The notes beneath the pieces are model-generated. The model worked only from the letters and a program-made list of their open reading frames with translations. It was not told where the DNA came from and did no database searches. From the NCBI GenBank assembly GCA_042576165.1, contig JBHPBZ010000002.1, positions 1 to 56,723 on the forward strand: 56,723 bases of DNA, given 5' to 3'. Each line of letters opens with the position of its first letter. The stretch's first letter is position 1. The position numbers and the translations under genes were made by a program. Shown here one piece after another: positions 2,545-56,723 of the stretch. This stretch comes from Candidatus Babelota bacterium. Its GTDB lineage: Bacteria; Babelota; Babeliae; Babelales; UASB340.

Positions 2545-2547
2545 AAA

Positions 2548-3600: not shown

Positions 3601-3609
3601 GGAGAAGCA

Positions 3610-5203: not shown

Positions 5204-5213
5204 AGAGATATAC

Positions 5214-6739: not shown

Positions 6740-6743
6740 AAAT

Positions 6744-7787
6744 ATGAAAGCCCTTGTTTTAGAAGATAATAAAAAACTTGTATATAAAAATGTGGCAGAT
6801 CCTATCGTTGGGGATGATGAGTGTTTGATTGTTGTAAAAAGTGCTGGAATTTGTAGTTCTGATTTTCATAGAGCATATAATAATTGGGCATATTTTTATC
6901 CTTTAATTATGGGGCATGAATTTGCTGGTGAAGTTATTAAAACGGGACGCTTGGTAACAAAGTATAGTTTGGGTGATAGGGTTGTAATCTTTCCTCTACT
7001 TCCTTGTAATAAATGTGAATTTTGTTTAAGCAAACAGCATGCGCAGTGTATTTCTTATAATTATTATGGATCAAGAAGAGATGGTGGTTTTGCTGAATAT
7101 GTATCAGTTAAAGAATGGAATCTTTTAAAACTACCAAAAGAAATTAGTTTCCAAAGAGCTGCCGTTATAGAACCAATTGCCGTCGCTATTCATGCAATAT
7201 CTAGAGCCAAAATAAAACCAGAAGAAAAGATAGCAATATTAGGTACAGGCTTTATAGGATTGGTTACAGCATTTCTGCTTTCTAAAAAAGTAGATCCTAA
7301 ATTAATATATATGATTGATCAAGATAAAAATAAACTTGAATTTGCAGCAAAATATGGCTTTAAAACAATTTGCACCAAAGACAATGAATTCTGGGAAGAA
7401 TCCATTGTTAAAGCTGGAGGCATGCATACTGTTTTTGAAATGTGTGGAGTTGTCCAAACATTTAAGCATTCGCTTATTATTGCAAAAAGTCATGGTCAAA
7501 TTATTTGGGTTGGTAATATAACAAGTGATATTATGTTTGAAAAAAAATTAATAAGTAGCATTTTACGTAAAGAATTAAGCATAAAAGGTTCATGGAATTC
7601 GTTATTTGTGCATAATAATAATGATGATTGGCATAAAGCGATTTGCTATGCAAAACAAGCAAGTGAGTTAGAAGAAATGATTACTCATGTTATTTCACTT
7701 GAGCAAGGCGTAATTTTTTTTGAATCACGCATGTTGCACCCTAAAAAAGAGAATAATCTTTATATAAAATCAGTATTTAAAATGTAA
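6744..7787 (+). CDS. zinc-dependent medium-chain dehydrogenase/reductase, second copy
   Basis: CSSD, GHEFAGEVIKTG, a Cys cluster (CNKCEFCLSKQHAQC) and GTGFIGL. Confidence 0.85.
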   Translation: MKALVLEDNKKLVYKNVADPIVGDDECLIVVKSAGICSSDFHRAYNNWAYFYPLIMGHEFAGEVIKTGRLVTKYSLGDRVVIFPLLPCNKCEFCLSKQHAQCISYNYYGSRRDGGFAEYVSVKEWNLLKLPKEISFQRAAVIEPIAVAIHAISRAKIKPEEKIAILGTGFIGLVTAFLLSKKVDPKLIYMIDQDKNKLEFAAKYGFKTICTKDNEFWEESIVKAGGMHTVFEMCGVVQTFKHSLIIAKSHGQIIWVGNITSDIMFEKKLISSILRKELSIKGSWNSLFVHNNNDDWHKAICYAKQASELEEMITHVISLEQGVIFFESRMLHPKKENNLYIKSVFKM

Positions 7788-7810
7788 TAAGAAAAAGGCA
7801 ATAGATAAAT

Positions 7811-9985
7811 ATGTTTAATATATCATTTTCTAGAAAAAACATAATTACTTGGGGAATTGCTTGTCTCACGTTTATTTTTCTTGTAAAAGGAATAACGTTG
7901 AGTTTATTTGCTGCTGGATTATTATTGTTTTCTTCTTTCTTTTATTTTATTTCCAAAAAGATAAATAACAATGTGGTTTTGATAGGAATAATGGCATCAC
8001 TTTTTTCTTTGATGTCTTGGTTCTTTCACGGGTCCTATCTAACTGTTTGTATTTTGGCATTGTTTATAGCTTTATTGATTAGTTGGAGTGCTGCTCATCT
8101 TTTGATTCAAGATGGGATAGTAGCTCTATGGAGTGTTGTGATTTCTTTAATAGAATGTTCTTTTTCACCTCCAAATCTATATATCTACATAACTTTGGGT
8201 TGGTTTATAGGAGTAGCTTTATTATTTTTTTTAAAATATGAAAAATTGAAAACAAATACAAGATATTTTTATGAATATATTAATAATTCAATCAGTTGGC
8301 TTGATTTGCTAACCATGTTTATTCTTTTGTGTTCGATGCTTTTGTTACTTATTTCAAAAGGGGGTTGTTTTTGGGCTCTTGATTCCCATCATCCTTTTTA
8401 TGAATTATCTATTGGGCAATCGTTCAAAAATGCCTTATTTCATGTACCCGATTTATCCTATAGTGGGAAGTTTTTAAGATTCCATTTTTTGAGTACTCAA
8501 TTGCCTTTTTACTTTAGTCACATGTTTAATATTTCTCTTTTACATTCTCTGTATATAGTAGTGATGATTTTTTTAGTCTTTTTAAGTTTTTTATTAATAT
8601 TATCTTTTTTCCATTACCACCAAAAACTTAAGGCTCCCTTGTTGTTTGTTTTTTTTATGCCAAGTTTTCTTTTTTTATTTGAGTGTCCTTATAAATCTAC
8701 CGTGCGTGCACCAGTGTCATATCTTTTAGCCTTTATATTTATTATATGCGCGTTGCATTTTTTAATTTGTAAAAAACATTGGTTGCTATTCATTTGTTCT
8801 TGTTTTCTTCTTTTAATAAAAGCAAGTTATTTTATGGCTTTATGTGGGGGTATTTTTATTTTTTTGATACGTCAAAGATATTCTTTTATGGTGGTTTTTA
8901 AAAAAATGCTACCATATGTTTTATTTTTTTTTATGGCAAACTTTTTGTTTTTATCAGGAGCCCATAATCATAATTTGTGGGTATTAATGCCCTCTTTTAT
9001 GTTTCATTATACAAAAGGGGCATATTTTTTTTGTAGGGCAGAAGCTTTTTTGGGAATATTGATTTTTTCTTATGCTTTTTACCAATTAAGAAAATCTGAA
9101 AATATTAATATTCACGCATTAGCCTCCATTATTCTTTCAGGGTTAATTGGGTGGTTCTTGATTATTGAACTGACAGAGGGAAATAGCTATCAATTTATTA
9201 GAGCTATATATTTTCCATTAACACTATTTGCGTGGTTTATAATAAATAAACCTTTTCGAAAAACCTTATTTATTTGTATGTCAATATTGAGCTTTTATTT
9301 TTGTTCATATTTTTTATTTCAATCTTGTTCTTTGATAGGCAATCTTATAAACAGTAAAAATTCTTCTATTACTCAGTCATTTATTAAAACTTATTCATGG
9401 CTTGGAAACAATATTACCAAGGATAGTGTTGTTTTGTTTGGATTACATTATAACTATGACTCAGATCCAAGAATAACTAAACGGTCGGCTATAAGTGGCA
9501 GACAAATGTATTGTGAAGGTTTTACAGTTAAAGGTATTTTAATGGAGAGTGATTATGTATTAAGAAAAGCTAATACTGCAAGGTTTTATAAAGAGTTTGT
9601 AAATCTTAGCGCTTTATCTAAAGAAAAGTTTAATTCTTTCGAGAAGAATGCATGTGGGAATAAACCAGGAATTCCTCTTTCTCAATCACCAGCATTTTCA
9701 GTGCGGTTATTGCATTATTTAAGCTTAGGCAAAGAGTGGCATACTATTAATAGAAAAAAACAGATAGGTTTTGAGCTTAAATCACACTTGACCAAAACCT
9801 TTTCAGAAGATGATGCAAATAAATTCCTTGTTCAAGCGAAAATAACACATATTATATTGGAGGACGGCGATACTCCATCAGATTTTTTAAGAAAAATAGG
9901 TAGAGAGATTTATAATTTAGAGGGTTTTTCTGTTTTTGAAGTTAAGCATAAAGTAGATGAAGAATGGATTAAAAACGAGTGTTAG
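7811..9985 (+). CDS. large polytopic membrane protein with C-terminal soluble domain (possible GT-C-like glycosyl/polymer transferase)
   Basis: 724 aa. The first ~520 aa are hydrophobic, Phe/Leu-rich segments consistent with more than 10 TM helices. The last ~200 aa are hydrophilic. It is the last gene of the co-directional glycan cluster. The function is inferred from context only. Confidence 0.4.
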   Translation: MFNISFSRKNIITWGIACLTFIFLVKGITLSLFAAGLLLFSSFFYFISKKINNNVVLIGIMASLFSLMSWFFHGSYLTVCILALFIALLISWSAAHLLIQDGIVALWSVVISLIECSFSPPNLYIYITLGWFIGVALLFFLKYEKLKTNTRYFYEYINNSISWLDLLTMFILLCSMLLLLISKGGCFWALDSHHPFYELSIGQSFKNALFHVPDLSYSGKFLRFHFLSTQLPFYFSHMFNISLLHSLYIVVMIFLVFLSFLLILSFFHYHQKLKAPLLFVFFMPSFLFLFECPYKSTVRAPVSYLLAFIFIICALHFLICKKHWLLFICSCFLLLIKASYFMALCGGIFIFLIRQRYSFMVVFKKMLPYVLFFFMANFLFLSGAHNHNLWVLMPSFMFHYTKGAYFFCRAEAFLGILIFSYAFYQLRKSENINIHALASIILSGLIGWFLIIELTEGNSYQFIRAIYFPLTLFAWFIINKPFRKTLFICMSILSFYFCSYFLFQSCSLIGNLINSKNSSITQSFIKTYSWLGNNITKDSVVLFGLHYNYDSDPRITKRSAISGRQMYCEGFTVKGILMESDYVLRKANTARFYKEFVNLSALSKEKFNSFEKNACGNKPGIPLSQSPAFSVRLLHYLSLGKEWHTINRKKQIGFELKSHLTKTFSEDDANKFLVQAKITHIILEDGDTPSDFLRKIGREIYNLEGFSVFEVKHKVDEEWIKNEC

Positions 9986-10080
9986 ATCAAGCTAAAATTT
10001 TTAGAACATTTGATAAAAACAAATCCTGCTAGAGATAGAATATTTCAAAAAAGATCAATATTTGTTATCGAAATAATATA

Positions 10081-10243
10081 GCCCTACTTTGCTTTCTACT
10101 TTGTTAAAGCTCCGTAGAGAGAAACATGACGGCCCTTAGTTGACGCGTTTCGCAACAAAGATATCGTGTTCGATTTCAGCTTGCAGCATTCTCAACTTAT
10201 TCAGACTACTTTGCTAATTCGTACGACACAGCATTACGCATAA
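10081..10243 (+). repeat. decayed coding repeat, copy 1 (TGA-RPLVDAFRNKDIVFDFSLQH... tail)
   Basis: Shares GCCCTACTTTGC plus a ~64-nt core (10126..10189) with 13750..13910. TGA replaces the conserved TGG codon. Confidence 0.7.
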
Positions 10244-10266: not shown

Positions 10267-10683
10267 ATGTATCAAGGTACGATTGATCGCCACTTAGCCC
10301 TTGAAATGCTGTCGCTATATGATCCAGAATACAGACAATATTTGAAGCTGAGTAAGTTGAAAGATGAAACTGTTGGCGAAACTAAATTTATGGCGATAAT
10401 GATACCTCAATATAGAACCGTACCTTTATCTGAATTCACGAAAACGAGGGCCTGCGGGAAAACAGAAGAAGAGCTCAAAAAAAGATTAGATATTGTACAT
10501 GAACTCATCACGTTTCCCCTAACTGAGGAAGAAATGGATGAGATGAAGCAATTAGCGGCAAAGATTGCTGCTCGTAGAAAATCTGTGCGCACCCCTGGCG
10601 ATTGCTCGCACTCAGAAGAAGAATATCAGGATGCGATAAGAAGTACACGAGGTTCATGTGATATAAAACAGGTACAAATGTAA
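10267..10683 (+). CDS. hypothetical protein in a locally GC-enriched segment
   Basis: 138-aa ORF with no motif I recognise. The first 60-nt row of the ORF counts 27 G+C, clearly above the surrounding AT-rich DNA. Confidence 0.5.
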   Translation: MYQGTIDRHLALEMLSLYDPEYRQYLKLSKLKDETVGETKFMAIMIPQYRTVPLSEFTKTRACGKTEEELKKRLDIVHELITFPLTEEEMDEMKQLAAKIAARRKSVRTPGDCSHSEEEYQDAIRSTRGSCDIKQVQM

Positions 10684-10807
10684 GAGGAGTATGACTATGA
10701 AAAAATTCTATGTACCGACAACTAAAGAAATAATCACGGAGCTCAGTTGCTTAAAAAAAGTTAAAACGAAATGAAGCGAAATGAAACGAAAATTAAAGCG
10801 AAGTCGT

Positions 10808-10824
10808 GACAGGCTACGCCTGTC
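10808..10824. other. GC-rich hairpin GACAGGC-TAC-GCCTGTC between convergent genes
   Basis: Perfect 7-bp stem with a 3-nt loop read directly from the sequence. No U-run follows, so terminator function is uncertain. Confidence 0.3.
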
Positions 10825-10862
10825 CACTTGGCGGTCGGCTTGCCTCTAAGCGTCAAAATGAG

Positions 10863-11681
10863 CTAAATCATACCAGAATTCTTAAAAAATTCAGTACACA
10901 GACCTTTTGCAAATGGACAAAAAATATGCTTATAATCGATAAAAAAGTTTTTTATTTTAGGTACATTCCAAGGTGTTTTAAATTCATCGGCATGATTCAT
11001 AACAATTAAAGTAAAATTCTTGTCCTTAAAGCTGTTATTAAGGGCTTCAAGCAATTCCAAAGACTGTGCTTTTGTTATGTCAGTGGAACGTATAAAATAA
11101 ATTTCCCCCTTAAATGCTGAAAGGTTCCTGAATCGTTCAACCCTTCGCATTAGCTTTGAATAAGTTTCATCATATTGGCTTTTTACCAACTCGCCAAAGC
11201 TGTTAAAATTATAAAATTGCTTCATGGTATCAAATTTAAAATTTTCAATTCGTTGGAACGGAAAATCATGAACAATTCTTATATCATACAAACAATCATG
11301 GACGCGAGTATCTCGATCTGCTATTAAGTTTTCAAGGGATAAAAAATCTTTAAAATCATTGTTAATGCATCTGATCAACCCTTCAATGTGTGACTCACAC
11401 CAATCAAAAGGAAATGCTGTATGTCTTATTTGTTCGTTGCTGAGTTGGCCAGCAACTATGCAATTATATCCAAGGCTTACAGCTATTTTCTCCTGATCCA
11501 TCCAGTTGGTCTCAATAAGAACATGCTCTGATGGGTGCCTGTTTTGTAGATCGACCATCTCATTAATGAGATGGATATCGTTATTGATTTCACAAGGTAA
11601 AAGATCATGTGTCGCAAATAAAAATATTGCATAAAACAATACGCCTGTATATTTACGTTGCCTTATTAAAAAATCTTTCAC
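10863..11681 (-). CDS. DUF1796-like putative papain-like cysteine peptidase (signal/anchor at N-terminus)
   Basis: IAVSLGYNCIVAGQLSNEQIRHTAFPFDWCES resembles the sLG.nC....l...g.r..a.PFDW opening I recall for PF08795. The N-terminus is hydrophobic (GVLFYAIFLFA). Confidence 0.45.
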   Translation of the reverse strand: MKDFLIRQRKYTGVLFYAIFLFATHDLLPCEINNDIHLINEMVDLQNRHPSEHVLIETNWMDQEKIAVSLGYNCIVAGQLSNEQIRHTAFPFDWCESHIEGLIRCINNDFKDFLSLENLIADRDTRVHDCLYDIRIVHDFPFQRIENFKFDTMKQFYNFNSFGELVKSQYDETYSKLMRRVERFRNLSAFKGEIYFIRSTDITKAQSLELLEALNNSFKDKNFTLIVMNHADEFKTPWNVPKIKNFFIDYKHIFCPFAKGLCTEFFKNSGMI

Positions 11682-11992: not shown

Positions 11993-12784
11993 ATGATTAT
12001 TTACAAACAAATATCAACACCTTTAATGTTTTTTTCATTCTTGAATATGAGATTATTTACAAAGTTCTTTTTATGGATTTTGCTTTTGTTCAAGCTTGTT
12101 TCAGCAGGACAAATTGCAGCAAGCGTAACAGGATATCCAAAATCAACAAACAAGTATGTTAACGATTTTGCAGAAGTCATAGATAAAGTAGATGCTCAAA
12201 GAATAAAAAAACAGTTGAAACACGTTGAAAAACAAACAGGAATAGAGATCACTGTTGTTTCCATCAAATCTATTAATGATTATCAACGTACTGAAATAAA
12301 TTTTGAAAAATTTGCAACTGCATTATTTAATACGTGGGGAATAGGAAAAAAGAAAGAGAACAATGGAGTCCTTTTCTTGATCGCCATTAAAGATCGAATG
12401 GTTCGTATCGAACTTGGCACTGGATATTCAAGTATTTATGATAAGAAAATGAAAAGTGTTATTGAAAATGATATCATTCCTTACTTTAAAATGAATCAAT
12501 ATAGTAGAGGTATCTATGAAGGAACACATGGCATTATTACATGTGTGATAAAAGAAGTCTCGTGGCTTGAGTTTTATAAGTGGCATATCCTCATATTCTT
12601 ACTTATCATTCTTCTTAGTCTTGCAACCGTTTCTTGTTTTCGATCAGGCAAAAAAGGTTGGGGGTGGGCATTATTTGCATTAATTGGCCTTCTTTTTATT
12701 TTTCTATGGAAAATACGTGGTAGATCGTCAGATAATTTTGGAGGAGGCTCGTCATCTGGTGGTGGAGCAAGCGGTAAATGGTAA
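11993..12784 (+). CDS. TPM-domain (TLP18.3/Psb32/MOLO-1 type) protein with C-terminal TM segments and Gly/Ser tail
   Basis: YVNDFAEVIDKVDAQRIKKQLKHVEKQTGIEITVVSIKSI is typical of TPM_phosphatase domains. Two TM helices follow, then GGGSSSGGGASGKW. The true start may be the ATG at 12047 (MRLFTKFFLWILLLF signal peptide). Confidence 0.8.
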   Translation: MIIYKQISTPLMFFSFLNMRLFTKFFLWILLLFKLVSAGQIAASVTGYPKSTNKYVNDFAEVIDKVDAQRIKKQLKHVEKQTGIEITVVSIKSINDYQRTEINFEKFATALFNTWGIGKKKENNGVLFLIAIKDRMVRIELGTGYSSIYDKKMKSVIENDIIPYFKMNQYSRGIYEGTHGIITCVIKEVSWLEFYKWHILIFLLIILLSLATVSCFRSGKKGWGWALFALIGLLFIFLWKIRGRSSDNFGGGSSSGGGASGKW

Positions 12785-12890
12785 ACAGCTTTTTTAACAA
12801 AAAAAATTACTTAATTGATCTAGGATTTTTGGCAATAAAGGCTTCGATCGCTAATGGTAAATCATCTTCTATTGCTTTTAAATCTATAAA

Positions 12891-13577
12891 CTAGTTAATA
12901 GTTTTTTCCCCTTGCTGTTGTATTTTATAATTTGGAAAAAAATCTTTTAAGTATAGTGAGCAGATTAAATCAACTAATCGTTCTTTTTCCCAATGTTCAA
13001 GATTATATTGTTTTACAATATCTTCTTCTATTCCAATATGAACAATTTCATGTGCGATGATTGTTGCAATAGACCTTTTCATATTGTTTTTATGAATAAT
13101 TATTTTTCCTATATTTTTTTCTGGATAATAACTACCACCTGGTCCATATAATGTTAACAAAACTTCATATTTTGGTTTGAGCTGAAAACCCCAGTTTTTT
13201 TCCAAAAGAACAAGTTTTTCTAAAATTTCGTTTATAAATGTTTTAGTTTGAGAAATTTTTTTCAAACTTTCATCAAATACTGATACATCATAAATTTTAT
13301 TATAAAAAATTTGTTTTAGATGTTCTTTTTCTTTTTCATTTACTACTTTGTTTTCATGATAAGCTTGAGCAAAATCTTTGTGTTTCGGAAACCCTATATT
13401 GTAACCATTTTCTTTAAACCATAATGATATTGATAGGCACTCCATAACATATGAAAAAGCCTCTTCTTTTGTTTGTGGACGATAAATAATTTCCGGTATT
13501 TTTTCAGAAAATAAATTTGAAAAATTAAGCAAAAAAAGAAGTGAAACAAGTATTTTAACATGTGTCTTATTGATCAT
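12891..13577 (-). CDS. secreted HExxH zinc-metallopeptidase-like protein
   Basis: Signal peptide (VKILVSLLFLLNFSNLFS) and IIAHEIVHIGIEED (HExxH followed by an acidic residue). No finer family assignment is possible by eye. Confidence 0.5.
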   Translation of the reverse strand: MINKTHVKILVSLLFLLNFSNLFSEKIPEIIYRPQTKEEAFSYVMECLSISLWFKENGYNIGFPKHKDFAQAYHENKVVNEKEKEHLKQIFYNKIYDVSVFDESLKKISQTKTFINEILEKLVLLEKNWGFQLKPKYEVLLTLYGPGGSYYPEKNIGKIIIHKNNMKRSIATIIAHEIVHIGIEEDIVKQYNLEHWEKERLVDLICSLYLKDFFPNYKIQQQGEKTIN

Positions 13578-13717
13578 TTATATTCCTTTTCTTTGGTCGA
13601 TGTATACTTAGAACCACCTTCATTATGTTGCAATATTCGTTCTTTGAGATTTGTTATATAATCAACATAAGTTTGATTTGGTTTTTTAAGAGATTTAAGT
13701 AGATATATATAATGCAT
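13574..13717 (-). pseudogene. truncated GIY-YIG nuclease-domain gene (YhbQ/UPF0213-like N-terminal half)
   Basis: MHYIYLLKSLKKPNQTYVDYITNLKERILQHNEGGSKYTSTKE matches the GIY...YIG...R...HN part of the domain but stops after ~47 codons. The stop overlaps the next start (ATGA). Confidence 0.6.
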
Positions 13718-13749
13718 AAAAATTAGATTAATTTGTAAAAATAAGAAAA

Positions 13750-13910
13750 GCCCTACTTTGCACAAATTTACTATCAATTGCTAACTTCATTTAAAAAGAT
13801 GGCGGCCCCTCGTTGACGGGTTTCGCAACAAAGATGATATGTTTGATTTTAGTTTGCAACATATACAAACCATTTTTACATGCTTTAATATTCAATCACA
13901 ATTTGCCTAA
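13750..13910 (+). repeat. decayed coding repeat, copy 2 (WRPLVDGFRNKDDMFDFSLQH... tail)
   Basis: See copy 1. The 20-codon core differs from copy 1 at 8 codons, 5 of them synonymous in the + frame. Confidence 0.7.
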
Positions 13911-13975
13911 AAAAAAAGAACCATAGTATATTTAGACCTTAAATTTTTTCCGAGAAACAAAAGGAAAATTATACT

Positions 13976-14350
13976 ATGGCATCATCTATAAATAAGCTTA
14001 AAACAATCAATGATAAAGTTCAAGAAACAAATTCTGGAAAGCTTTTATTTCTTTCTGGTTTTGATTTTGTAGAGGAATGTCTCTCAAATTCTTCTTTGAA
14101 GCCTATTCATCATTCCATTATGATTGAAGCAGATGATGATAAGAATAACTTTGTTGAGTTAGAAAGAGATGTTCTTGAAGAATTGGATTCTATTCATAAT
14201 GAGATCAAAAGTTATTCTAAAGAAAATGGAATAAAAATGAAATCTGATTTTGAGTCTTATGGAAATGAAGATCCTTGCAAATGTATTTATTCATCGTGGG
14301 ATGTTGCTAAAAATAAATATTTTTCGCTTAAAATACGAAGATCAATCTGA
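13976..14350 (+). CDS. hypothetical acidic protein
   Basis: 124-aa ORF preceded by AAAGGAAAA. A strong terminator lies downstream. No recognisable motif. Confidence 0.5.
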   Translation: MASSINKLKTINDKVQETNSGKLLFLSGFDFVEECLSNSSLKPIHHSIMIEADDDKNNFVELERDVLEELDSIHNEIKSYSKENGIKMKSDFESYGNEDPCKCIYSSWDVAKNKYFSLKIRRSI

Positions 14351-14473
14351 CGCGATTTTCTCCATGCATAAGAACTACCCAAACTTAATACTATTAAGAA
14401 TACAAAAATAAAGTTTATTTTTTTCATAAAAAAATCTTTCCTAAAAATAAAATTTCAAAATGTACCAAGAGCT

Positions 14474-14511
14474 AAAAAATAGCCTAACTTTTAACATTAG
14501 GCTATTTTTTT
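14474..14511. terminator. bidirectional rho-independent terminator
   Basis: AAAAAATAGCCTAA / 9-nt loop / TTAGGCTATTTTTT: a perfect 14-bp stem with A-run and T-run flanks, between convergent genes. Confidence 0.75.
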
Positions 14512-14584
14512 AAATTTTTTTTTAAAAAAATTTATGAAACTAGATCAAGTAATTAGAGATGTTTTTTACAAATTTAAAATTAAT

Positions 14585-15181
14585 TTATAATTCAACTAAT
14601 TTTCCAAAATCATAATTTGGATTCCAAAGCATACTTACATAACCTCGAGTTTGTAATTTAAACTTTGTAATACCCATTGATTTTAAAAAATCATAAATAA
14701 GCTTTATACCAACATTGGCATCTTGCACTTCTTTTTTTAACTCAACTTCAATAAAGGTTCCACAATTTTTTACTTGGTCAATAACAATCTCAAAACAATC
14801 ATGCATGTAAATATTTCTGTTTTTTTCAACAAGAGTTTGTTCTGAATAACCTAAAGATCTAAACAATTCTAGAGTTACCTTACCATCCGAAACTTTTACT
14901 TCGTATTCATCACAATACAAAGGTCTTTTTTCAACAGGATCTTCATGAAACCTTTTAAAGCAAAGAGTATCTCCATTTTTATTAAAACGCACTCTTAGGT
15001 AATCTATGGCATCCTTATAGCCTTCGGGAGCTGTAAATAAAAAACTAGTTGCCGGCTTATTTAAGTAATACTCAGTATGCTTTTCTTCTCTTATATGTTT
15101 TGCATTTTGATTTAACCATGACTTTACAAAATCAAAAATATTATCATCAATCTGCAATTTTACTTCTATTTCTTTGTTCAT
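14585..15181 (-). CDS. CYTH-domain protein (CyaB-type class IV adenylyl cyclase / triphosphate tunnel metalloenzyme family)
   Basis: The N-terminal EIEVKL is the ExExK signature. Later come YLRVR and FIEVELK. The ~200-aa size is typical. Confidence 0.75.
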   Translation of the reverse strand: MNKEIEVKLQIDDNIFDFVKSWLNQNAKHIREEKHTEYYLNKPATSFLFTAPEGYKDAIDYLRVRFNKNGDTLCFKRFHEDPVEKRPLYCDEYEVKVSDGKVTLELFRSLGYSEQTLVEKNRNIYMHDCFEIVIDQVKNCGTFIEVELKKEVQDANVGIKLIYDFLKSMGITKFKLQTRGYVSMLWNPNYDFGKLVEL

Positions 15182-15305
15182 AAAAACCCCTTGTTATTAA
15201 AATATTTTTTGAAAATTTTAATTTTTTAATAATGACATGTTCAGATAAAAAAGATAAAATTGCAAATTAAAAAGCTTTATAAAAAAATCAAGTAGAAGAA
15301 AAATC

Positions 15306-16040
15306 TTGAACAACAAAAAAAATTTAACTCACGTTTTTATAGATAGCTTGATGACAATTTTTAAAAATCCAATTTATTTATTAATCATATTTATTTTGAC
15401 TTTAGAATATTATGCGCTTATACATTTTTATGTTTCTTCTAATTATACAGCTATAAATTCACCAGCCAATTCTCTAATCAGTCTAATCTTCGACCTTTTT
15501 CAAGGTACTTTGTTGTTAATCATTAGCACAGCGATATATCAAAAAGAATTAGGGCTAAATGTAAAAAATAATTTAAAATTTGGAATTTCCGCACAAATAA
15601 AATATGCAGTATTAAGTCTTTTTCTTTTTTTCATATTTTTATTGCTTCCTTTATCCATTATTTTTTCTTTCTTAAGCATAAGAAACTTGACAGTCTTTTG
15701 GTTTAGTGCGATATATGTAGGGTTGTTCTATTTTTTCTATACACAAAACACATGGCTAGTAATACCGATAAAATTAAATGATAAAATTCCATTTCTAGAT
15801 GCTTGTACCAAATCTTATAATTATCTAAAACAACATCAAGGATTTATAATCTTAATACTTCTGTCAAACTTATCTTTCTGGTTTTTTCGTCCATCTCTTA
15901 AAACAATATTCTTAAAACACATTACCCCTTCAATCTTTGGCAACATTAGTCTTGTATTTTTTTTCATGTCCTACAATATTTTTTTTCCAGTTTTTCAAAC
16001 AATAGCCTATCTCTTTATCAAAAATAAATTGGACAACTAA
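15306..16040 (+). CDS. multi-pass membrane protein, unknown function
   Basis: 244-aa ORF with a TTG start (the first ATG is 15 codons in) and about 6 hydrophobic segments. It lies 1 nt from the next gene. Confidence 0.55.
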   Translation: MNNKKNLTHVFIDSLMTIFKNPIYLLIIFILTLEYYALIHFYVSSNYTAINSPANSLISLIFDLFQGTLLLIISTAIYQKELGLNVKNNLKFGISAQIKYAVLSLFLFFIFLLLPLSIIFSFLSIRNLTVFWFSAIYVGLFYFFYTQNTWLVIPIKLNDKIPFLDACTKSYNYLKQHQGFIILILLSNLSFWFFRPSLKTIFLKHITPSIFGNISLVFFFMSYNIFFPVFQTIAYLFIKNKLDN

Positions 16041-16041
16041 T

Positions 16042-16803
16042 ATGAAAAATTTTCTTAAAATCTTCTTAATATTTTTTTTATTAACTAATTTTATAGATCA
16101 AAACAAAATATTTGCTTACCCCCAAGATAAAGTAAAACAAGAGAACGGTACAACTTATATATACCCAAACAGCCACGCATATGTTGGTATTATTATTGGA
16201 GGAACATTAACCGTAATTGGTACAGGAATATTAATATATGACTACTTAAAATACAAAAAACAAAAAAATAACAATCGGTATTCAAGAAGTTATTTTAGTT
16301 GGATAAAAGAAAAAGCAACGACAGGAATTGCAGGAATTATTACAAGCTTAGCAGGTCTTATAACTTGTGGAGGGAGTTTTATATCACATAAAAATAGTAA
16401 ATATCCTTTTATTTGGTTAGATAACAATGAAATTAGGTACAATGGAAAAACAATGAAGTGGCAAGATCTTGGTGATATCGATACAAAAACTAAATTCAGA
16501 ACTTACAGAACAACAGAAACTCAATCTATTCCCACCCCTAGGGGAATAATTCATTCAATACATATCCCCAAAACACAAACCATTGCCAGAGACTATATAA
16601 TTTTTTTTCGTAAAACAAACCACCACCCTCTGACTTCTTTTAGTTGTGAAAACAATCACTTTGGCATACACCCAGCAGATAATCCCAACAACATTGCAAT
16701 CCCAATTGATAAATTACCAATTTCAAAAGAAGAATTTATGAATTTGGTAAAAAATTTCAAGCCAAGAAGAGATGGCCCATTTAATTTTATTCCCAGATTA
16801 TAA
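16042..16803 (+). CDS. membrane protein (signal peptide + 2 TM + C-terminal soluble region), unknown function
   Basis: 253-aa ORF. Hydrophobic segments: KIFLIFFLLTNFI, YVGIIIGGTLTVIGTGILIY and GIAGIITSLAGLITCGG. Confidence 0.55.
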   Translation: MKNFLKIFLIFFLLTNFIDQNKIFAYPQDKVKQENGTTYIYPNSHAYVGIIIGGTLTVIGTGILIYDYLKYKKQKNNNRYSRSYFSWIKEKATTGIAGIITSLAGLITCGGSFISHKNSKYPFIWLDNNEIRYNGKTMKWQDLGDIDTKTKFRTYRTTETQSIPTPRGIIHSIHIPKTQTIARDYIIFFRKTNHHPLTSFSCENNHFGIHPADNPNNIAIPIDKLPISKEEFMNLVKNFKPRRDGPFNFIPRL

Positions 16804-16838
16804 AAAAAGGTCCCGAGTTTTATCTCAGGACCTTTTTT
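16802..16838. terminator. bidirectional rho-independent terminator
   Basis: AAAAAAGGTCC(CGAG)...(CTCA)GGACCTTTTTT hairpin between convergent genes. Confidence 0.7.
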
Positions 16839-16852
16839 ATAACTTCAAAATA

Positions 16853-17860
16853 TCAAATTAATTCTGGCTTCAAGCTTTCATTTTCAATGAACTTAACTTC
16901 TGTAACAACCAGCTTCCCATCCACTCTACCAAAAACAGGTTGAATATCAAGATAATTGTATGCAAGACAGCTTGCACATCTTGCAAAATTAGAAAGTCCA
17001 TGAATAAAACAATCAAATTGATTAAATGCAAAAAAATCATATAATACGTTTGAATCATGGTTATTACCACTTGTTCTACAATCAAACTGAATATTATAAT
17101 CTTGAGTAAACTGTTTTTCAAAGCGTTCTTTTATTGATCTAGGATTAGAATCATCTGTAAAGATGTAAACATAAAGAGGAGTTCCCGCAAACATTTGATG
17201 AACTTTTTTAAGCTGATCAATATAATATTTTTCTTCCATAAATTTATCGGGAAAGAGCTCTCTTAAACGTCCCTCGCTACCCTCATACCTCCCTTTTCTT
17301 ACATGCACAGCAACAGAAATACGATCTTCAGGTAAATTCATTTTGGCAAATGCATTTTTAGGTGCAATAAATTTCCTTAACTCTTGAATAAAATCTTCAT
17401 CTTGCCAATCAATAGGATGTTTTCTTAAAAAGCCATTACTTTTGTAAAAATCCAGAACATATAGTACTTGTTTTTTTTGATCTTTATTTATAACAGTCTT
17501 CCCTGTAAGAGTAACTATATCAGTGTACTTTTTTTGCATCTTACTGCTAAATTTTTGTTCTTGTTCGTCCATGACAAGTTGATCTGAATATTGAAACGGC
17601 TTATAGAGTAAAATCATATTGTATTTATATGAAACCCATTTTGCCCTCATATATGCTAATAGATTATCGCCAAAACGACCGCCAGAAAAAGTATACGTTA
17701 CTGCATTGTGCTTACTTACTGTTTTCGAAGATATTGTTCCCAAACAATATATACAAAGAAAAAAAATAACAAAAAAACAAAACCTATTTTTTTTAACACT
17801 ATTAAATTGTTTTTTCATAGCAATCAGGTCTTTCTTTTTTCTGGCAATTTCATTTTGCAC
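16853..17860 (-). CDS. GT11-like (alpha-1,2-fucosyltransferase-like) glycosyltransferase with N-terminal signal anchor
   Basis: Three blocks parallel the GT11 motifs: SGGRFGDNLLAYMRA (GGLGNQMFQYA), HVRKGRY (HVRRGDY) and IFTDDSNP (FSDD). The N-terminal TM is FCFFVIFFLCIYCLG. Confidence 0.45.
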   Translation of the reverse strand: MQNEIARKKKDLIAMKKQFNSVKKNRFCFFVIFFLCIYCLGTISSKTVSKHNAVTYTFSGGRFGDNLLAYMRAKWVSYKYNMILLYKPFQYSDQLVMDEQEQKFSSKMQKKYTDIVTLTGKTVINKDQKKQVLYVLDFYKSNGFLRKHPIDWQDEDFIQELRKFIAPKNAFAKMNLPEDRISVAVHVRKGRYEGSEGRLRELFPDKFMEEKYYIDQLKKVHQMFAGTPLYVYIFTDDSNPRSIKERFEKQFTQDYNIQFDCRTSGNNHDSNVLYDFFAFNQFDCFIHGLSNFARCASCLAYNYLDIQPVFGRVDGKLVVTEVKFIENESLKPELI

Positions 17861-18030
17861 TTATAATATAAAACCACTCTAAATTCCCATTCCAACGTTT
17901 TTCTAGTTTTAATTTATCAGAATAATTTGTATAAAGAAATAGTTGCCACAATAATCTAATTAATTTTTTATTTGTTGTTTATCATATGGCTTCAAAATTA
18001 CGCATCGCTTTAACTTTGGGAGAAAGAAAT

Positions 18031-18114
18031 ATGAAAACTATTCTTATCGCTCGCGTAAACACAGAATAACAGAAAGAAGCGGGCAACTCGCTACGAGCTA
18101 CAAAAATCTTTTGA
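18031..18114 (+). pseudogene. remnant of a serine recombinase N-terminus
   Basis: A GGGAGAAAG RBS is followed by MKTILIARVNTE*QKEAGNSLRATKIF*. This resembles M..aiYaRVSTeeQ...G.SL..Q, but Asn replaces the catalytic Ser and there is an in-frame TAA. Confidence 0.35.
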
Positions 18115-18145
18115 TTTGATAGTAAAAAATGGGGATCGTAAACTA

Positions 18146-18253
18146 TGGCGGTACTTAGTTGACACATTCAGGAATGGTGAAATTGAATTTGAAGCAAAAT
18201 TAAACAATATAAAAACGCTATATTCAACATTTGGAATAGAATTAGAAATTTAG
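18146..18253 (+). repeat. decayed coding repeat, copy 3 (WRYLVDTFRNGEIEFEAKL... tail)
   Basis: The W-R-x-L-V-D-x-F-R-N peptide is shared with copies 1 and 2 and read in a + frame ending at TAG 18251. It lies directly downstream of the recombinase remnant. Confidence 0.5.
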
Positions 18254-18295
18254 TTTTTTTATATACCCCAAACCACTCTGTTTAAAATCATATCA

Positions 18296-18324
18296 TTGAC
18301 AACACGATTAAATGTTCTTACAAT
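18296..18324 (+). promoter_or_regulatory. consensus sigma-70-type promoter TTGACA-17 nt-TACAAT
   Basis: TTGACA at 18296..18301, an exact 17-nt spacer, TACAAT at 18319..18324. The site is enclosed by an 11-bp inverted repeat, CTCTGTTTAAA (18276..18286) / TTTAAACAGAG (18342..18352). Confidence 0.45.
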
Positions 18325-18360
18325 TTCACACAATGTATCAATTTAAACAGAGGAAGAGTA

Positions 18361-18483
18361 ATGAACATCATCATAAATTTTAGTAATCAATACCTGATTA
18401 CCAAACTAAAGCATTGGGGAATAAGTTATAATGATGTCTCCCTTTGTTATCAAACAAGTTTGCTTGCACTAAAAAACAAATAA
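18361..18483 (+). CDS. possible 40-codon small ORF downstream of the consensus promoter
   Basis: GAGGAAGAG RBS 2 nt before the ATG. Product MNIIINFSNQYLITKLKHWGISYNDVSLCYQTSLLALKNK. It is too short to validate by eye. Confidence 0.25.
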   Translation: MNIIINFSNQYLITKLKHWGISYNDVSLCYQTSLLALKNK

Positions 18484-18719
18484 TCTTTTTTAGACATCTC
18501 ACATCCTAATATTGTTCCCCTAATTTTATTTATAGGTTTTTTCATATAAACCTCTCATAGATGTAATGTATTATACTCATGTTCTTTATGTCTACAAAAA
18601 GGTAGCAAGATTAGTTCATAAGAAGATATAACATCTAAGATACTATTATCATGAATAAATACATTTAGGAGATTTTTTTGTATTTCTGTTTTAAAATTTT
18701 CTTGATTTTTATTTTTTAA

Positions 18720-19274
18720 TTATTTGGGCCATCCATCCGAATCTTCAAAAAGGCAATTATAAACTCTAACATCCTCTTTTCTAAGTTCTAAAGAAATCCC
18801 TTTCGTTTTTATTAATAATATTTCATCATCCAAAAAAGTTATATTTTTTGCTTGAAGGTGTTTTTTTAATTTATCACCGTATTTTGCATGTTTAGGTTTA
18901 AATGGAAGACAGCTACTAAATACTTTTACTTCTCCATCTACTAGTCTATATTGAAGATAATTAATAATTGAATATGGAGCTATAACTGAAATATGTGTTA
19001 ATAACAAGTCAGCATAACCTTTTTCCTTTAGATAAGCATCAAATTCATTTGAATAAAAGCTTGCATTTATTGGTGATAAATTTAAATACATTGTAAAACA
19101 AACCGAATAATTAAAATCTGTTTCATTATAAGAATACTTTTCTGGAAACCAATCATTAAATGATTTCACCCAAAACTTATTTGGTACATAGTTCCATATA
19201 GCATATTTACAATCTCCATGTTTATATATTTGTTCTATATCTAACATAACTTTGTTTTTAATATTATTATTCAT
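18720..19274 (-). CDS. immunity-like protein, cassette 2 (paralogue of 19976..20533)
   Basis: 184 aa, starting 12 nt after the toxin-like ORF. It shares long identical blocks with its paralogue (YKHGDCKYAIWNY, TDFNYSVCFTMYLNLSP, DVRVYNCLF). Confidence 0.6.
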   Translation of the reverse strand: MNNNIKNKVMLDIEQIYKHGDCKYAIWNYVPNKFWVKSFNDWFPEKYSYNETDFNYSVCFTMYLNLSPINASFYSNEFDAYLKEKGYADLLLTHISVIAPYSIINYLQYRLVDGEVKVFSSCLPFKPKHAKYGDKLKKHLQAKNITFLDDEILLIKTKGISLELRKEDVRVYNCLFEDSDGWPK

Positions 19275-19286
19275 TTTATCTCTCGC

Positions 19287-19568
19287 TTATTGAGAATAAT
19301 TTGGATATCCATGAATATATCCTTTTTCATCTATATGAACTTTTATTTTTAAATTTCCTTTAGTATATGTTTTCACAGTGGGATTTCCTGTAGGCTTACC
19401 CTTTAACCATCCTTCTTGTGTTAATTTTACACCATTTTCATTTGTAGGCCACAATGATTTTTTAGGGTTGAAATTATTATGCCCTGGAATGTGTTTACCT
19501 TGTTTTCCTGCATCAACAGGAGGAGCCCCTGGCACTTGACCAGAATCAACTATACCCTGATTTGGCAA
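19287..19568 (-). CDS. Ntox50-like polymorphic-toxin C-terminal domain, cassette 2 (orphan module)
   Basis: DAGKQGKHIPGHNNFNPKKS...KVHIDEKGYIHGYPNY. The start in the ORF track is a TTG. The frame stays open upstream to 19796 with no ATG, and further upstream there are in-frame TAA stops at 19797..19799 and 19923..19925. Confidence 0.55.
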   Translation of the reverse strand: MPNQGIVDSGQVPGAPPVDAGKQGKHIPGHNNFNPKKSLWPTNENGVKLTQEGWLKGKPTGNPTVKTYTKGNLKIKVHIDEKGYIHGYPNYSQ

Positions 19569-19975
19569 CTTATCATTATCTGATTGAAGTTGTTTAATTG
19601 TATTTTTTTTATTTTTTTTCTTGTTTAATTCTTTTCCATTTTTATCGCATTTTTCAATATCAGTTTTATCTGATTTTTTGTTATTATGTTTATCATTAGT
19701 AGGATTTTTTTGTATTTCCGCTTCAGACTTATCTTGATTTAGATTTAAATCATAAATAAAATAAATTTTATTTTCTTCAAGTCTGCGATCTACTCCTTAA
19801 TCAGAAAGTTCTGGAAAATTTTTAAAGAAATATAATCTGTCTAGATCTTCTCGAGTTGCTTTGCTTTTGCGAACTTTATCTTGAAGAAATTCAATATATT
19901 GTTGTCTAATATCTGCATTTCTTTAGTCTTGTGCAAGACTAATAAACAATGATTTACTAACTCTAAAATAATTAA

Positions 19976-20533
19976 TTATTTTGGCCAAGTATCAGAATCA
20001 TCAAAAAGACAATTATAAACTCTAACGTCTTTGGTTCTGTTTTCTAAACTTATTTCATCATCAACCTTGGCAAATAATATATCATCTTCCAAGCAAGTTA
20101 TACACCTGTCTTGAAGGTGTCTTTTTAATTTATTACCATATTTTGCATGTACAGGTTTAAATGGAGTATAACTATCAAATAATTTTGTATTATTATCTAT
20201 AAATCGATATTGAAGATATTTAACAACTGCATATGGGGCTACAACTGAAATATCTGCTAATAATAAGTCAAGAACGCCATTGGTTATTACATAATTCCTA
20301 AATTCTTTTGTGCCGATTTGATATTTTGTAGGAGATAAATTTAAATACATTGTAAAACAAACAGAATAATTAAAATCAGTTGCATTATAAGAATAGATAT
20401 CAGGAAACCAATCCTTAAATGGTTGAATCCAAAAACCTCTTGGAATATAATTCCATATTGCATATTTGCAATCTCCATGTTTATAGATCATTTCTACGTC
20501 TGAAATTACGGTAGTTTTTTTTGGGTCATTCAT
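19976..20533 (-). CDS. immunity-like protein, cassette 1
   Basis: 185 aa, with a GGAG RBS, starting 9 nt after the toxin-like ORF. Paralogue of 18720..19274. Confidence 0.6.
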   Translation of the reverse strand: MNDPKKTTVISDVEMIYKHGDCKYAIWNYIPRGFWIQPFKDWFPDIYSYNATDFNYSVCFTMYLNLSPTKYQIGTKEFRNYVITNGVLDLLLADISVVAPYAVVKYLQYRFIDNNTKLFDSYTPFKPVHAKYGNKLKRHLQDRCITCLEDDILFAKVDDEISLENRTKDVRVYNCLFDDSDTWPK

Positions 20534-20542
20534 TTTAATCTC

Positions 20543-20830
20543 CTATATTTTTAAAGGATAATTTGGATAACCATGAATACATCCTTGCTTGTCAATATGA
20601 ACTTTAATATCTAGATTATTCTTTGTATATGTTTTAACGGTAATTTTTTTTGTTGGCTCACCATTCATCCATGCTTCTTGTGTTAATTCTATACCATTTT
20701 CACCTGCAGGCCATAATGATTTTTTAGGGTTGCAATTATTATGACCTGGAATATGTTTACCTTGTTTTCCTGCATCAACAGGAGGAGCATCCGGTATTTT
20801 TCCCGCAGTAACTAATCCTTGATTTGGCAA
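20543..20830 (-). CDS. Ntox50-like polymorphic-toxin C-terminal domain, cassette 1
   Basis: DAGKQGKHIPGHNNCNPKKS...KVHIDKQGCIHGYPNY. 68 of 91 aligned residues are identical to cassette 2 by manual count. It begins at a TTG in a frame offset by one nucleotide from the upstream signal-peptide ORF. Confidence 0.55.
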   Translation of the reverse strand: MPNQGLVTAGKIPDAPPVDAGKQGKHIPGHNNCNPKKSLWPAGENGIELTQEAWMNGEPTKKITVKTYTKNNLDIKVHIDKQGCIHGYPNYPLKI

Positions 20831-21063
20831 TTTATCATTGGAGTTTTAACAAATTCAATACAAAATTTTTCATCATCAAGTTTTTTTAATTTCAAACCTA
20901 AAACTTCATCGCCAATTTTTAAGTTTTCTACACACTTATAATCGTTTATTGATTCTCCAGTTTTGATTAGAGTTCCCGTAATTATATTTGGAAAAATTGT
21001 GTTTAGATTTAAAAGAGTTAAAAATAATGTAAAAAAAATAAAATTTATTTTTTGGGTTTTCAT
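20812..21063 (-). CDS. signal peptide + short Hint-like stub (probable decayed N-terminus of the toxin gene)
   Basis: MKTQKINFIFFTLFLTLLNLN signal peptide, then GTLIKTGESINDYKCVENLKIGDEVLG, resembling the Hint pattern GT.V.t..G....i..l.vGD.Vl but lacking the first Cys. It overlaps the toxin ORF by 19 nt in another frame. Confidence 0.4.
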   Translation of the reverse strand: MKTQKINFIFFTLFLTLLNLNTIFPNIITGTLIKTGESINDYKCVENLKIGDEVLGLKLKKLDDEKFCIEFVKTPMINCQIKD

Positions 21064-21146
21064 TGAGTTCCAGACATTAAATATCTTTTTTATAGGAAAT
21101 ACTTTAACTATATTTAATTTTGTATCTTTGTAATTTAAAACAAAGG

Positions 21147-21497
21147 ATTTATGATAAAAAAATGAAAAGTGTTATTGAAAATGATATCATTCCTTACTTT
21201 AAAATGAATCAATATAGTAGAGGTATCTATGAAGGAACACATGGCATTATTACATGTGTGACAAAAAAAGTCTCATGGCTTGAGTTTTACAAGTGGCATA
21301 TCCTTATATGCTTACTTATCATTTTTCTTAGTCTTGCAACCATTTCTTGTTTTCGATCAGGCAAAAAAAGTTGGGGGTGGGTATTATTTACATTAATAGG
21401 CCTTCTTTTTATTTTTCTATGGAAAATAGGTGGTAGATCATCAGATAATTTTGGAGGAGGCTCGTCATCTGGTGGTGGAGCAAGCGGTAAATGGTAA
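21147..21497 (+). pseudogene. duplicated 3' fragment of the TPM-domain gene (direct repeat of 12434..12784)
   Basis: The translated tail YDKKMKSVIENDIIPYFKMNQYSRG...GGGSSSGGGASGKW differs from residues of 11993..12784 at 9 of 115 positions by manual count. There is no TPM domain upstream. Confidence 0.85.
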
Positions 21498-21652
21498 AAT
21501 TGTTTAGGTTTTCTTATAATGCAGTATAAATAACTATATGAAGAAATATACAGTCGGAAAAGATTCTAGGCTCTTGTTGTTTTAGATTAATTTTTCTATA
21601 AAGAGTTTCCTTTTTGCGAAGATGGCTTGCCATCCGTAGCTTTAGCGTAGGA

Positions 21653-21730
21653 TGGCGGGGCTAACGAGACTCGAACTCGCGACCTTTCGCGTGACAGGCG
21701 AACGCTCTAACCAAACTGAGCTATAGCCCC
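21653..21730 (-). tRNA. tRNA-Asp (GTC)
   Basis: The reverse complement GGGGCTATAGCTCAGTTTGGTTAGAGCGTTCGCCTGTCACGCGAAAGGTCGCGAGTTCGAGTCTCGTTAGCCCCGCCA folds as a cloverleaf. Anticodon loop CTGTCAC. CCA is encoded. Confidence 0.93.
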
Positions 21731-21741
21731 CTAAAATCTTA

Positions 21742-21817
21742 TGGCTCCCCGGGCAGGACTCGAACCTGCGACCGAACGATTAACAGTCGTTTGCTCTACC
21801 AACTGAGCTACCGAGGA
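21742..21817 (-). tRNA. tRNA-Asn (GTT)
   Basis: Reverse complement TCCTCGGTAGCTCAGTTGGTAGAGCAAACGACTGTTAATCGTTCGGTCGCAGGTTCGAGTCCTGCCCGGGGAGCCA. Anticodon loop CTGTTAA. CCA is encoded. Confidence 0.93.
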
Positions 21818-21894
21818 ACATAATTGCAAGATACCAATTAGTAAAGTATCAAAGCAAATAAATATTTCAATAATTTTTTCGACGTAAGTTTTAA

Positions 21895-21971
21895 TGGTGG
21901 GCGAAGCAGGATTCGAACCTGCGACCCCCTGCTTGTAAGGCAGGTGCTCTAACCAACTGAGCTATTCGCCC
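21895..21971 (-). tRNA. tRNA-Val (TAC)
   Basis: Reverse complement GGGCGAATAGCTCAGTTGGTTAGAGCACCTGCCTTACAAGCAGGGGGTCGCAGGTTCGAATCCTGCTTCGCCCACCA. Anticodon loop CTTACAA. CCA is encoded. Confidence 0.93.
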
Positions 21972-56677: not shown

Positions 56678-56723
56678 AAATTTAATTCTCCTATCAAAAA
56701 GAACTTTTAACTCTTTCTAGGGT

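Follow-up and report, generated by a model that had tools for sequence, protein, structure and literature searches.

The window analysed here is the whole of contig JBHPBZ010000002.1 (56,723 nt; assembly GCA_042576165.1) of a Candidatus Babelota (Dependentiae, TM6) bacterium, and our subject is a direct duplication in it of the 3' end of a gene for a TPM-domain membrane protein, together with the serine-recombinase remnants and the tRNA cluster that lie around the two copies. The segment 12434-12785 recurs at 21147-21498 in direct orientation and free of gaps, with 336 of 351 positions identical (95.7%; blastn E = 4e-163) and 8362 nt between the copies. Identity fades on the left at 12430/21143 and ends on the right 1 nt past the TAA stop codon. 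The 15 mismatches, which amount to six synonymous and nine amino-acid changes over 116 codons, are clustered: 14 fall in a central stretch of 179 nt, a single one in the 115 nt before it and none in the 58 nt after it (span statistic, P about 0.006), with identical stretches of 103 nt and 58 nt and a central divergence of 7.8%. Genes for tRNA-Asp, tRNA-Asn and tRNA-Val (21653-21971, minus strand) begin 156 nt beyond the right copy. A preliminary description of this DNA, made from its letters and open reading frames, had reported the duplication, the start-less right copy, the 8362 bp between the copies and the tRNA genes 156 bp beyond, and all of these numbers hold.

The left copy belongs to an intact gene. 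Its product covers profile positions 1-124 of 125, carries a transmembrane segment and a Gly-rich tail after the full domain, can be aligned over its full length with 12 homologues and has the conserved residues in place. Lacking a start, the right copy begins in the middle of the domain and covers only the last third of it. In the alignment with the 12 homologues the right copy has four derived residues and the left copy two, and the right copy is altered at a nearly invariant Gly, a pattern by which the fragment apparently shows relaxed constraint. Further fossils of the TPM gene, of the neighbouring DUF1796 gene or of others were not found in the non-coding stretches of the window. The features that matter for what follows are listed here (ORF, open reading frame; LSR, large serine recombinase; rem1 to rem3, the three LSR remnants).

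10127..10240, plus strand: rem1, an isolated LSR tail and the third of the remnants, left of the TPM gene and outside the island first proposed; similarity to the rem2 unit reaches left to about 10033
10267..11681: a 138-aa ORF and a papain-like DUF1796 gene, the latter on the minus strand; compositional outliers together with the TPM gene
12047..12784, plus strand: intact gene for the TPM-domain membrane protein (PF04536, E = 3e-32), with an alternative upstream ATG at 11993
12434..12785, plus strand: left copy of the repeat, made up of the final 116 codons, the stop codon and 1 nt beyond the intact TPM gene
12891..13577, minus strand: 228-aa ORF whose N-terminus looks like a signal sequence and which contains an HExxH motif; no family match
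13574..13777, minus strand: small, truncated GIY-YIG gene (PF01541), a weak match (20.5 bits, below the cut-off of 22.6, over profile positions 1-41 of 78)
13800..13907, plus strand: rem2, an isolated native LSR tail (P' arm), attL-type fossil, recognised from repeat D7 and from LSR comparison
13976..17860, unstranded: cargo between rem2 and the LSR pseudogene (a 124-aa ORF, the CYTH/CyaB-like gene, two membrane ORFs and a 335-aa ORF)
14585-15181, minus strand: CYTH/CyaB-like gene (PF01928 and TIGR00318 CyaB)
15306-16803: the two membrane ORFs
16853-17860, minus strand: the 335-aa ORF, with no detectable family
18031..18253, plus strand: rem3, the LSR pseudogene, in attP-type configuration
18720..19568, minus strand: cassette 1, a 93-aa Ntox50 toxin C-terminal domain (PF15542) with a 184-aa presumed immunity gene
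19976..21063, minus strand: cassette 2, a 95-aa Ntox50 toxin domain with a 185-aa presumed immunity gene, after an 83-aa signal-peptide ORF
21147..21498, plus strand: right copy of the repeat, the displaced, start-less 3' fragment of TPM (TPM profile positions 85-124 only)
21499..21652, unstranded: 154-nt spacer that separates the TPM fragment from tRNA-Asp; LSR coding sequence and LSR tail both absent (tblastn with LSRs)
21653..21730, minus strand: tRNA-Asp(GTC), plus-strand 3' end TGGCGGGGCTAA; attB of the LSR family, currently unoccupied or scarred
21742..21971, minus strand: tRNA-Asn(GTT) and tRNA-Val(TAC); the conserved backbone begins here (dNK, SpoU, ftsA, ftsZ onwards)

Contents of the interval and its place in the genome

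The preliminary description had seen accessory-type genes between the copies. The membrane proteins and the CYTH gene are there as stated, the latter with both of its family matches. The HExxH peptidase-like gene keeps its motif and gains no family, the truncated GIY-YIG gene can be recognised over half of its profile at a score below the cut-off, and the GT11-like enzyme falls away, the 335-aa ORF behind it finding no support. Neither this ORF nor the 228-aa ORF has a family in Pfam, NCBIfam, PHROGs or PDB sequences. As for a tyrosine integrase, no ORF of 12786-21146 matches an integrase family in Pfam, NCBIfam or PHROGs.

The toxin and immunity cassettes also stand, at 31.5 and 30.2 bits for the two Ntox50 domains against a Pfam gathering cut-off of 22.2, while the immunity role of the 184-aa and 185-aa genes is presumed and assigned by position alone. 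The two cassettes are a tandem duplication of about 1.26 kb (18716-20839; repeats D2-D4 and D6), which must be old because its copies are 75-81% identical in nucleotides. The toxin ORFs of 93 and 95 aa are not fused to an N-terminal delivery or trafficking region; the sole upstream ORF is the 83-aa one, which overlaps the toxin ORF of cassette 2 in another frame. Together, cassette 2 and this ORF look like a decayed secreted toxin. The 83-aa ORF (20812-21063) has a signal peptide and, by eye, a Hint-like stretch (GTLIKTGESINDYKCVENLKIGDEVLG) that has no Pfam match.

To the right of the tRNA genes lies core chromosome: dNK, a SpoU methylase gene, ftsA, ftsZ, pgi, prfA, a nucleoside transporter gene, mnmA and PPDK. 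The order from dNK rightwards is kept in five relatives (loci L011-L015), in three of which, L013-L015, tRNA-Asn and tRNA-Val were found; on the other side of the tRNAs, to the left, the DNA is different in all five. None of the interval ORFs has a homologue in any fetched locus, the syntenic locus of these relatives included. Because of this and because the DNA left of the tRNAs differs from relative to relative, we regard the interval as accessory DNA in a variable spot, which bears out the preliminary description on this point. All relatives are distant: the closest FtsZ proteins are at most 76% identical, some of them labelled Candidatus Dependentiae or Babeliales by their sources, the best TPM homologue is 66% identical, a scan of a genome collection returned relatives at no more than 54% identity, and exact-protein look-ups of TPM (with both start codons) and of dNK found no match. 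Rfam reports the three tRNAs in the window and nothing else, and the partial tRNA copies that classically mark tRNA-att islands were not found.

Within the cluster the gap between tRNA-Asp and tRNA-Asn is only 11 nt in the window (21731-21741). Among the FtsZ-closest relatives, the three with a recognised cluster (L013-L015) have Asn and Val alone at the locus and no Asp, and the Asp/Asn/Val spacers of two further loci with the full cluster, L034 and L037, measure 194 and 100 nt.

Serine-recombinase remnants and the family they belong to

A 68-nt motif is present at 10122-10189 and 13795-13862 and, in weaker form, at 18145-18168 (repeats D7 and D13); by inspection, the differences between the copies at 10122 and 13795 are mostly synonymous in the plus-strand frame. 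What all three sites have in common is the 35-aa native tail of an LSR. The third site could be recognised as an LSR pseudogene through comparison with locus L017. Its first residues read MKTILIARVNTE*QKEAGNSLRA and share 74% identity with an intact LSR in which Resolvase, Recombinase and Zn-ribbon domains are present. The N-terminal 23 codons are kept, at 74-83% amino-acid identity to intact LSRs, the catalytic Ser has become Asn, a stop codon has arisen, about 435 codons are deleted, and the last ~16 codons (QKSFDLIVKNGDRKLW) and the native tail follow. Pfam gives no match on conceptual translations of the three remnants, and their identification comes only through loci L017, L034, L035 and L037; the serine-recombinase remnant named in the preliminary description is thus real, and comparison with intact homologues is what shows it.

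The family of this recombinase is large (2135 homologues at E <= 1e-20), and we examined the 120 best. All 120 end in ...PFDLI...W followed by one of three types of ending. In 70 of them the protein stops after WR[G/S/D], an ending that reads as the reverse complement of the 3' end of tRNA-Asp (in the window, TGGCGGGGCTAA). Another 25 run on with tails encoded by other tRNAs, such as WLPGQDSNLRPND for tRNA-Asn. Long tails occur in 11, among which P0281, the LSR of L035, is clearly of the window type and several others share a W......[L/F]R motif. L035 is a circular element of 12.6 kb with a terminal overlap of 141 nt (L036 is a circular permutation of it), and because the LSR of this circle carries the long tail, we assign the long tail to the attP form. 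In the integrated elements of L034 (L034:3969-11523, on a 1.6-Mb contig) and L037 (1460-2983), the LSR runs into the tRNA-Asp of an Asp/Asn/Val cluster, and L034 has, 6 kb upstream of its LSR, the isolated tail expected of an attL. L037 is 92% identical in nucleotides to the last 61 nt at window positions 18091-18151 and diverges right after TGGCGG, and since the two part immediately after this hexamer, we place the crossover in it. Comparison of one circular and two integrated relatives thus shows that the family integrates at a TGGCGG core in tRNA 3' ends, mostly of tRNA-Asp. The LSR ORF would cross attP, with the 35-aa tail in the circle and 'RG*' replacing it upon integration into tRNA-Asp. 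The P' arm TGGCGGTGCTTAGTTGAC and tRNA-Asp TGGCGGGGCTAACGAGAC are alike at 13 of 18 positions, and the tails are tRNA-Asp-like over only these ~18 nt. ARAGORN finds no tRNA at any LSR tail, and the idea that the tails are tRNA genes or a T-arm was rejected on this result and on a local hairpin with a 5-nt loop, seen by inspection. The family is absent from IMG/VR; we found no paper on recombinases of Dependentiae and no description of this Dependentiae LSR family in the literature.

Two of the relatives show the same kind of element at the neighbouring tRNA. L014 and L015 are one species, 99.98% identical rightwards from L014:6034 / L015:1672, and they differ by an intact LSR element at tRNA-Asn; the last 13 codons of this LSR are the reverse complement of tRNA-Asn. 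On alignment, the 3' end of tRNA-Asn is apparently an occupied site in both L014 and L015, with different occupants, and L013 has a remnant at the same position. The preliminary description had drawn attention to the tRNA setting, and rightly so: because LSR elements are found at tRNA-Asp in L034 and L037 and at tRNA-Asn in L014/L015, the cluster is a true serine-integrase integration hotspot in the clade.

The pseudogene of the window is still in attP-type configuration, 3.4 kb from tRNA-Asp. A tblastn search with LSRs found none beside the tRNA-Asp of the window, and because no LSR abuts that gene, the block did not enter by way of its own integrase. The 154-nt spacer resembles the left arm of the L034 attL by eye (AGCGTAGRM), a likeness that is not significant, so calling the site an unoccupied attB rests on the absence of LSR sequence. 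Since isolated tails lie both at 13800-13907 and, left of TPM, at 10127-10240, the mobile DNA must be composite and extend over about 10.03-21.65 kb with TPM inside it, and the limits drawn in the preliminary description, which ran from one repeat copy to the other, give way to the att fossil at 10.1 kb. Its integrated island with a decayed recombinase survives in part: there is mobile DNA with a dead LSR, but that LSR is the wrong one for these repeats, and the block is larger and composite.

The surroundings of the two isolated tails (10033-10240 and 13700-13907) are alike on the left side too, including AGCCCTACTTTGC, and lie near the truncated GIY-YIG gene (13574-13777). The repeated unit has the form 'giy + tail', as though a GIY-YIG gene had replaced the recombinase.

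Origin of the duplication

We favour, at roughly even odds (about 0.5), the reading that homology-driven insertion of DNA into the TPM gene left the repeat as its scar, within a larger graveyard of mobile elements of about 11.6 kb, and that its copies are not the att sites of an integrase. Incoming DNA that carried the last 116 TPM codons would have recombined with the chromosomal TPM gene. The donor would most simply have been a circular, composite and already decaying element of LSR type (an insertion of Campbell type), and a linear fragment anchored by homology at one end, as in homology-facilitated illegitimate recombination (HFIR; PMC3240628), would give an equal outcome. The crossover would have restored TPM by joining the 5' part of the host gene to the 3' end that came in, now the left copy, and would have displaced the original 3' end by 8.4 kb, still joined to its native 154-nt spacer and tRNA-Asp, as the right copy, which would since have been drifting as a pseudogene. 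The event would fall inside the graveyard of integrative elements (about 10.03-21.65 kb) at the tRNA-Asp hotspot, and the LSR would not be the maker of the TPM junction, its own sites being the TGGCGG core at a tRNA 3' end and the tail motifs. From the observed repeat and its gene context, the LSR pseudogene with its configuration, the att system of its family and the variability of the locus in relatives, we infer the direction of the event (an insertion), a circular intermediate and a joint made by host homologous-recombination functions.

Several observations speak for this reading. The block is bracketed by direct copies of a shared segment, one of which completes TPM, as in Campbell-type or homology-driven insertion, and for an insert flanked in this way by 351-bp copies homologous recombination is the simplest process. 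It fits an LSR in attP configuration with its attB unoccupied, near-identity over the first 115 nt and a fragment that is the more derived copy; clustered mismatches next to the near-identical first 115 nt are what one would expect of a crossover or conversion tract within the repeat. The displaced 3' end does sit on the tRNA-cluster flank, as the preliminary description had it.

The same description took the duplicated segments for attL/attR-like junctions, and here we part from it. Elements moved by serine recombinases are flanked by very short repeats only, and the best-studied one uses 2-bp identical sequences (PMC5704250); the LSR family at hand uses a 6-nt TGGCGG core and leaves no long repeats, and it cannot have made a 351-bp duplication, far longer than the few bp expected of a shared core. 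The junctions 12434 and 12785 are also devoid of the TGGCGG core and of arms resembling the tail. Because serine elements have short repeats, because the junctions are without core or arms and because there is no tyrosine integrase, the repeats are not the att sites of any recombinase found. The marks of an integrated LSR (an ORF that runs into tRNA-Asp and ends WRG*, an isolated tail at the far end) are seen in L034 and L037 and are lacking in the window. A junction made by the LSR at the TPM stop codon (AAATGGTAAA) was considered and rejected, as the sequence lacks the TGGCGG core and has nothing like a P' or B' arm on either side.

Other observations weigh against a homology-driven insertion. 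An empty site was not found: the nearest relatives stand at 66% (TPM) and 76% (FtsZ) identity and have TPM in other contexts. The 28 other TPM loci hold no duplicated TPM 3' end, and the 18 TPM loci of a metagenome scan no second TPM fragment. The homology stops 1 nt past the stop codon, so the donor TPM must have been followed by different DNA. Composition points the same way. A compositional comparison, of the kind that the preliminary description had proposed, does not mark the interval as foreign: G+C content at third codon positions (GC3) is 0.19 in interval genes and 0.18 in core genes, and the codon adaptation index (CAI; reference, core genes) is 0.69 and 0.68. The outliers are instead TPM (GC3 0.26) and its two left neighbours, the DUF1796 gene (0.30) and the 138-aa ORF (0.36). 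A recent foreign insert should show the opposite, and the core-like interval therefore argues against one, unless the donor was a close relative. Finally, giy+tail units (10.03-10.24 and 13.70-13.91 kb) and TPM 3' copies alternate along the window, two of each, and this interleaving, with the third tail left of TPM, hints at a history of tandem units.

Such a history is the most serious competitor, and we think it unlikely without dismissing it. Two element units (tail-cargo-TPM) could have stood side by side at tRNA-Asp, or a second TPM could have come on a block made of rem1, the 138-aa ORF, DUF1796 and TPM; the redundant TPM next to the tRNA would then have lost its 5' part through insertion of the toxin cassettes or through deletion, and nothing would have been inserted into TPM. 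The order of direct repeats (giy+tail, TPM 3', giy+tail, TPM 3') fits this, and the three compositional outliers with an LSR tail just upstream, a TPM gene 1.2 kb from an LSR element in L017 and the relaxed constraint on the TPM fragment agree with it. Yet TPM is not regular cargo of these elements, being absent from the LSR loci L013, L015, L034, L035 and L037, and an LSR lies nearby in only one of the 28 TPM loci. Decay of an array would also take at least two extra events and, by chance, a block boundary exactly 1 nt past the stop codon. With 81% identity between the giy+tail copies and 96% between the TPM copies, the two pairs do not come from one duplication.

It is also possible, and rather improbable, that the assembly is at fault. 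Either a strain variant or an independent circle, about 8.7 kb long and carrying a TPM 3' fragment, might have been threaded into the contig by way of the identical stretches of 103 nt and 58 nt, and the true chromosome would then have TPM directly beside tRNA-Asp. The window is a whole metagenomic contig with an artefact-like 27-nt inverted repeat at its end, the repeat does contain long perfectly identical stretches, and the LSR of the interval is in the configuration of a circular form with tRNA-Asp unoccupied. The supposed circle, however, would lack a replication gene and its integrase would be dead, in contrast to the circular L035; the TPM 5' part is followed, as assembled, by the better conserved of the two 3' copies; and identical stretches of at most 103 nt would not collapse at large k.

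A site-specific island with a replacement TPM 3' end in its attP, its integrase decayed and the two copies as attL and attR, we consider quite improbable, somewhat more so than an assembly fault. Integration in the 3' end of a gene has precedents in e14 and phage 21, which integrate in the 3' end of E. coli icd. In the window the block does lie between an intact target gene and a directly oriented, displaced piece of that gene, the topology of gene-restoring islands with their regenerated target (principle in PMC4383910), and identity does end at the gene end. But the recombinase remnants are of serine type only, with att sites mapped elsewhere (TGGCGG, tRNA 3' ends), and the short repeats of serine elements, the lack of a tyrosine integrase domain in any ORF and the lack of a second example in the 28 TPM loci all tell against such an island, as do the nine non-synonymous changes among 15 differences, which are unlike a selected replacement end. 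A local tandem duplication of a 352-bp segment, with mobile DNA inserted later exactly at the joint, could explain why the copies are nearly identical at both ends, as if once identical in one genome, but it is hardly credible, needing a unit end 1 nt past the stop by chance, all 8.4 kb precisely at the joint and a later allelic patch for the central 7.8% divergence.

Known systems, the wider family and the rest of the contig

Taken alone, the TPM duplication is an ordinary recombination scar in a variable region, and its value is as a pointer to the LSR family. More tentatively than for the homology-driven insertion, and on balance with more doubt than confidence, we suggest that the window is a fossil bed of a tRNA-targeting serine-integrase family, widespread in Dependentiae, whose ORF lies across attP, with the TPM duplication a by-product of recombination between such elements. 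The 35-aa tail would then be encoded by a degenerate copy of the tRNA-Asp 3' end, with the TGGCGG core at the encoded CCA. The tail swap could be a built-in switch tied to the integration state, and tandem arrays could grow through the use of isolated tails (attL) as secondary targets.

Why might such a family matter? Serine integrases have been stated not to be known to target tRNA genes (PMC4383910), and this one, going by its protein ends and integration sites, appears to do so and is well populated in an uncultured, host-dependent phylum. If this is confirmed, the rules for finding genomic islands, which now require tyrosine integrases at tDNAs, would widen, a new set of natural serine integrases with a defined, conserved target would become available, and there would be a handle on gene flow in Dependentiae.

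The arrangement resembles several known systems and differs from each. Gene-restoring islands (tDNA islands, Islander; PMC4383910) share with it the intact target, the displaced direct 3' fragment, identity to the gene end and adjoining tRNA genes; they use a tyrosine integrase and a short crossover core, whereas the window has a 351-bp repeat and a serine-type recombinase with other sites. In Campbell-type insertion, in HFIR and in the sequential displacement of effector/immunity modules of the Vibrio cholerae type VI secretion system (PMC5361080), homology in a conserved gene anchors DNA, and the old 3' part or module is pushed downstream and decays, as we propose here; toxin/immunity cassettes among the cargo are a further likeness to the Vibrio modules. 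The process in the window is, in contrast, read from its end product, and the anchor is a TPM-domain gene, not a toxin or secretion gene.

Resolvase, Recombinase and Zn-ribbon domains and a very short crossover core link the relatives of the pseudogene to phiC31, Bxb1, Tn4451 and SCCmec/Ccr; unlike these, the Dependentiae family targets tRNA 3' ends and its ORF runs across attP. SCC arrays at rlmH arise by tandem accretion at one site. The possible tandem accretion of elements in the window recalls these arrays (compare PMC6222049). Integrase genes that span attP are known from Mx8 IntP and from the SSV type (PMC4383910; for the SSV type also PMC7253208), where integration alters the C-terminus of the integrase (Mx8) or splits its gene (SSV), as the 35-aa tail of the Dependentiae LSR would give way to 'RG*'. 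Those are tyrosine recombinases, however, and in the serine-type family only the last ~35 codons are exchanged. The two tandem, diverged pairs, in each of which a small gene lies downstream of a toxin C-terminal domain, are like polymorphic toxin cassettes (Ntox50, PF15542), but in the window a full-length delivery protein is absent and there is only the out-of-frame 83-aa signal-peptide ORF.

The strongest compositional outliers of the contig are the 138-aa ORF (GC 0.40, GC3 0.36, CAI 0.47) and the DUF1796 gene, whose acquisition is probably the most recent. The DNA to the left of the mobile region holds a gene for a leucine-rich-repeat protein (62-871) and a sugar-nucleotide and glycosyltransferase cluster (1196-9985) with a 724-aa polytopic membrane protein, probably a surface-polysaccharide locus. 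At 45868-46850, repeats with a period of about 141 nt in a 656-aa gene on the minus strand are WD40 beta-propeller repeats. A perfect 27-nt inverted repeat (56463-56489 / 56697-56723) at the very end of the contig is probably an assembly artefact.

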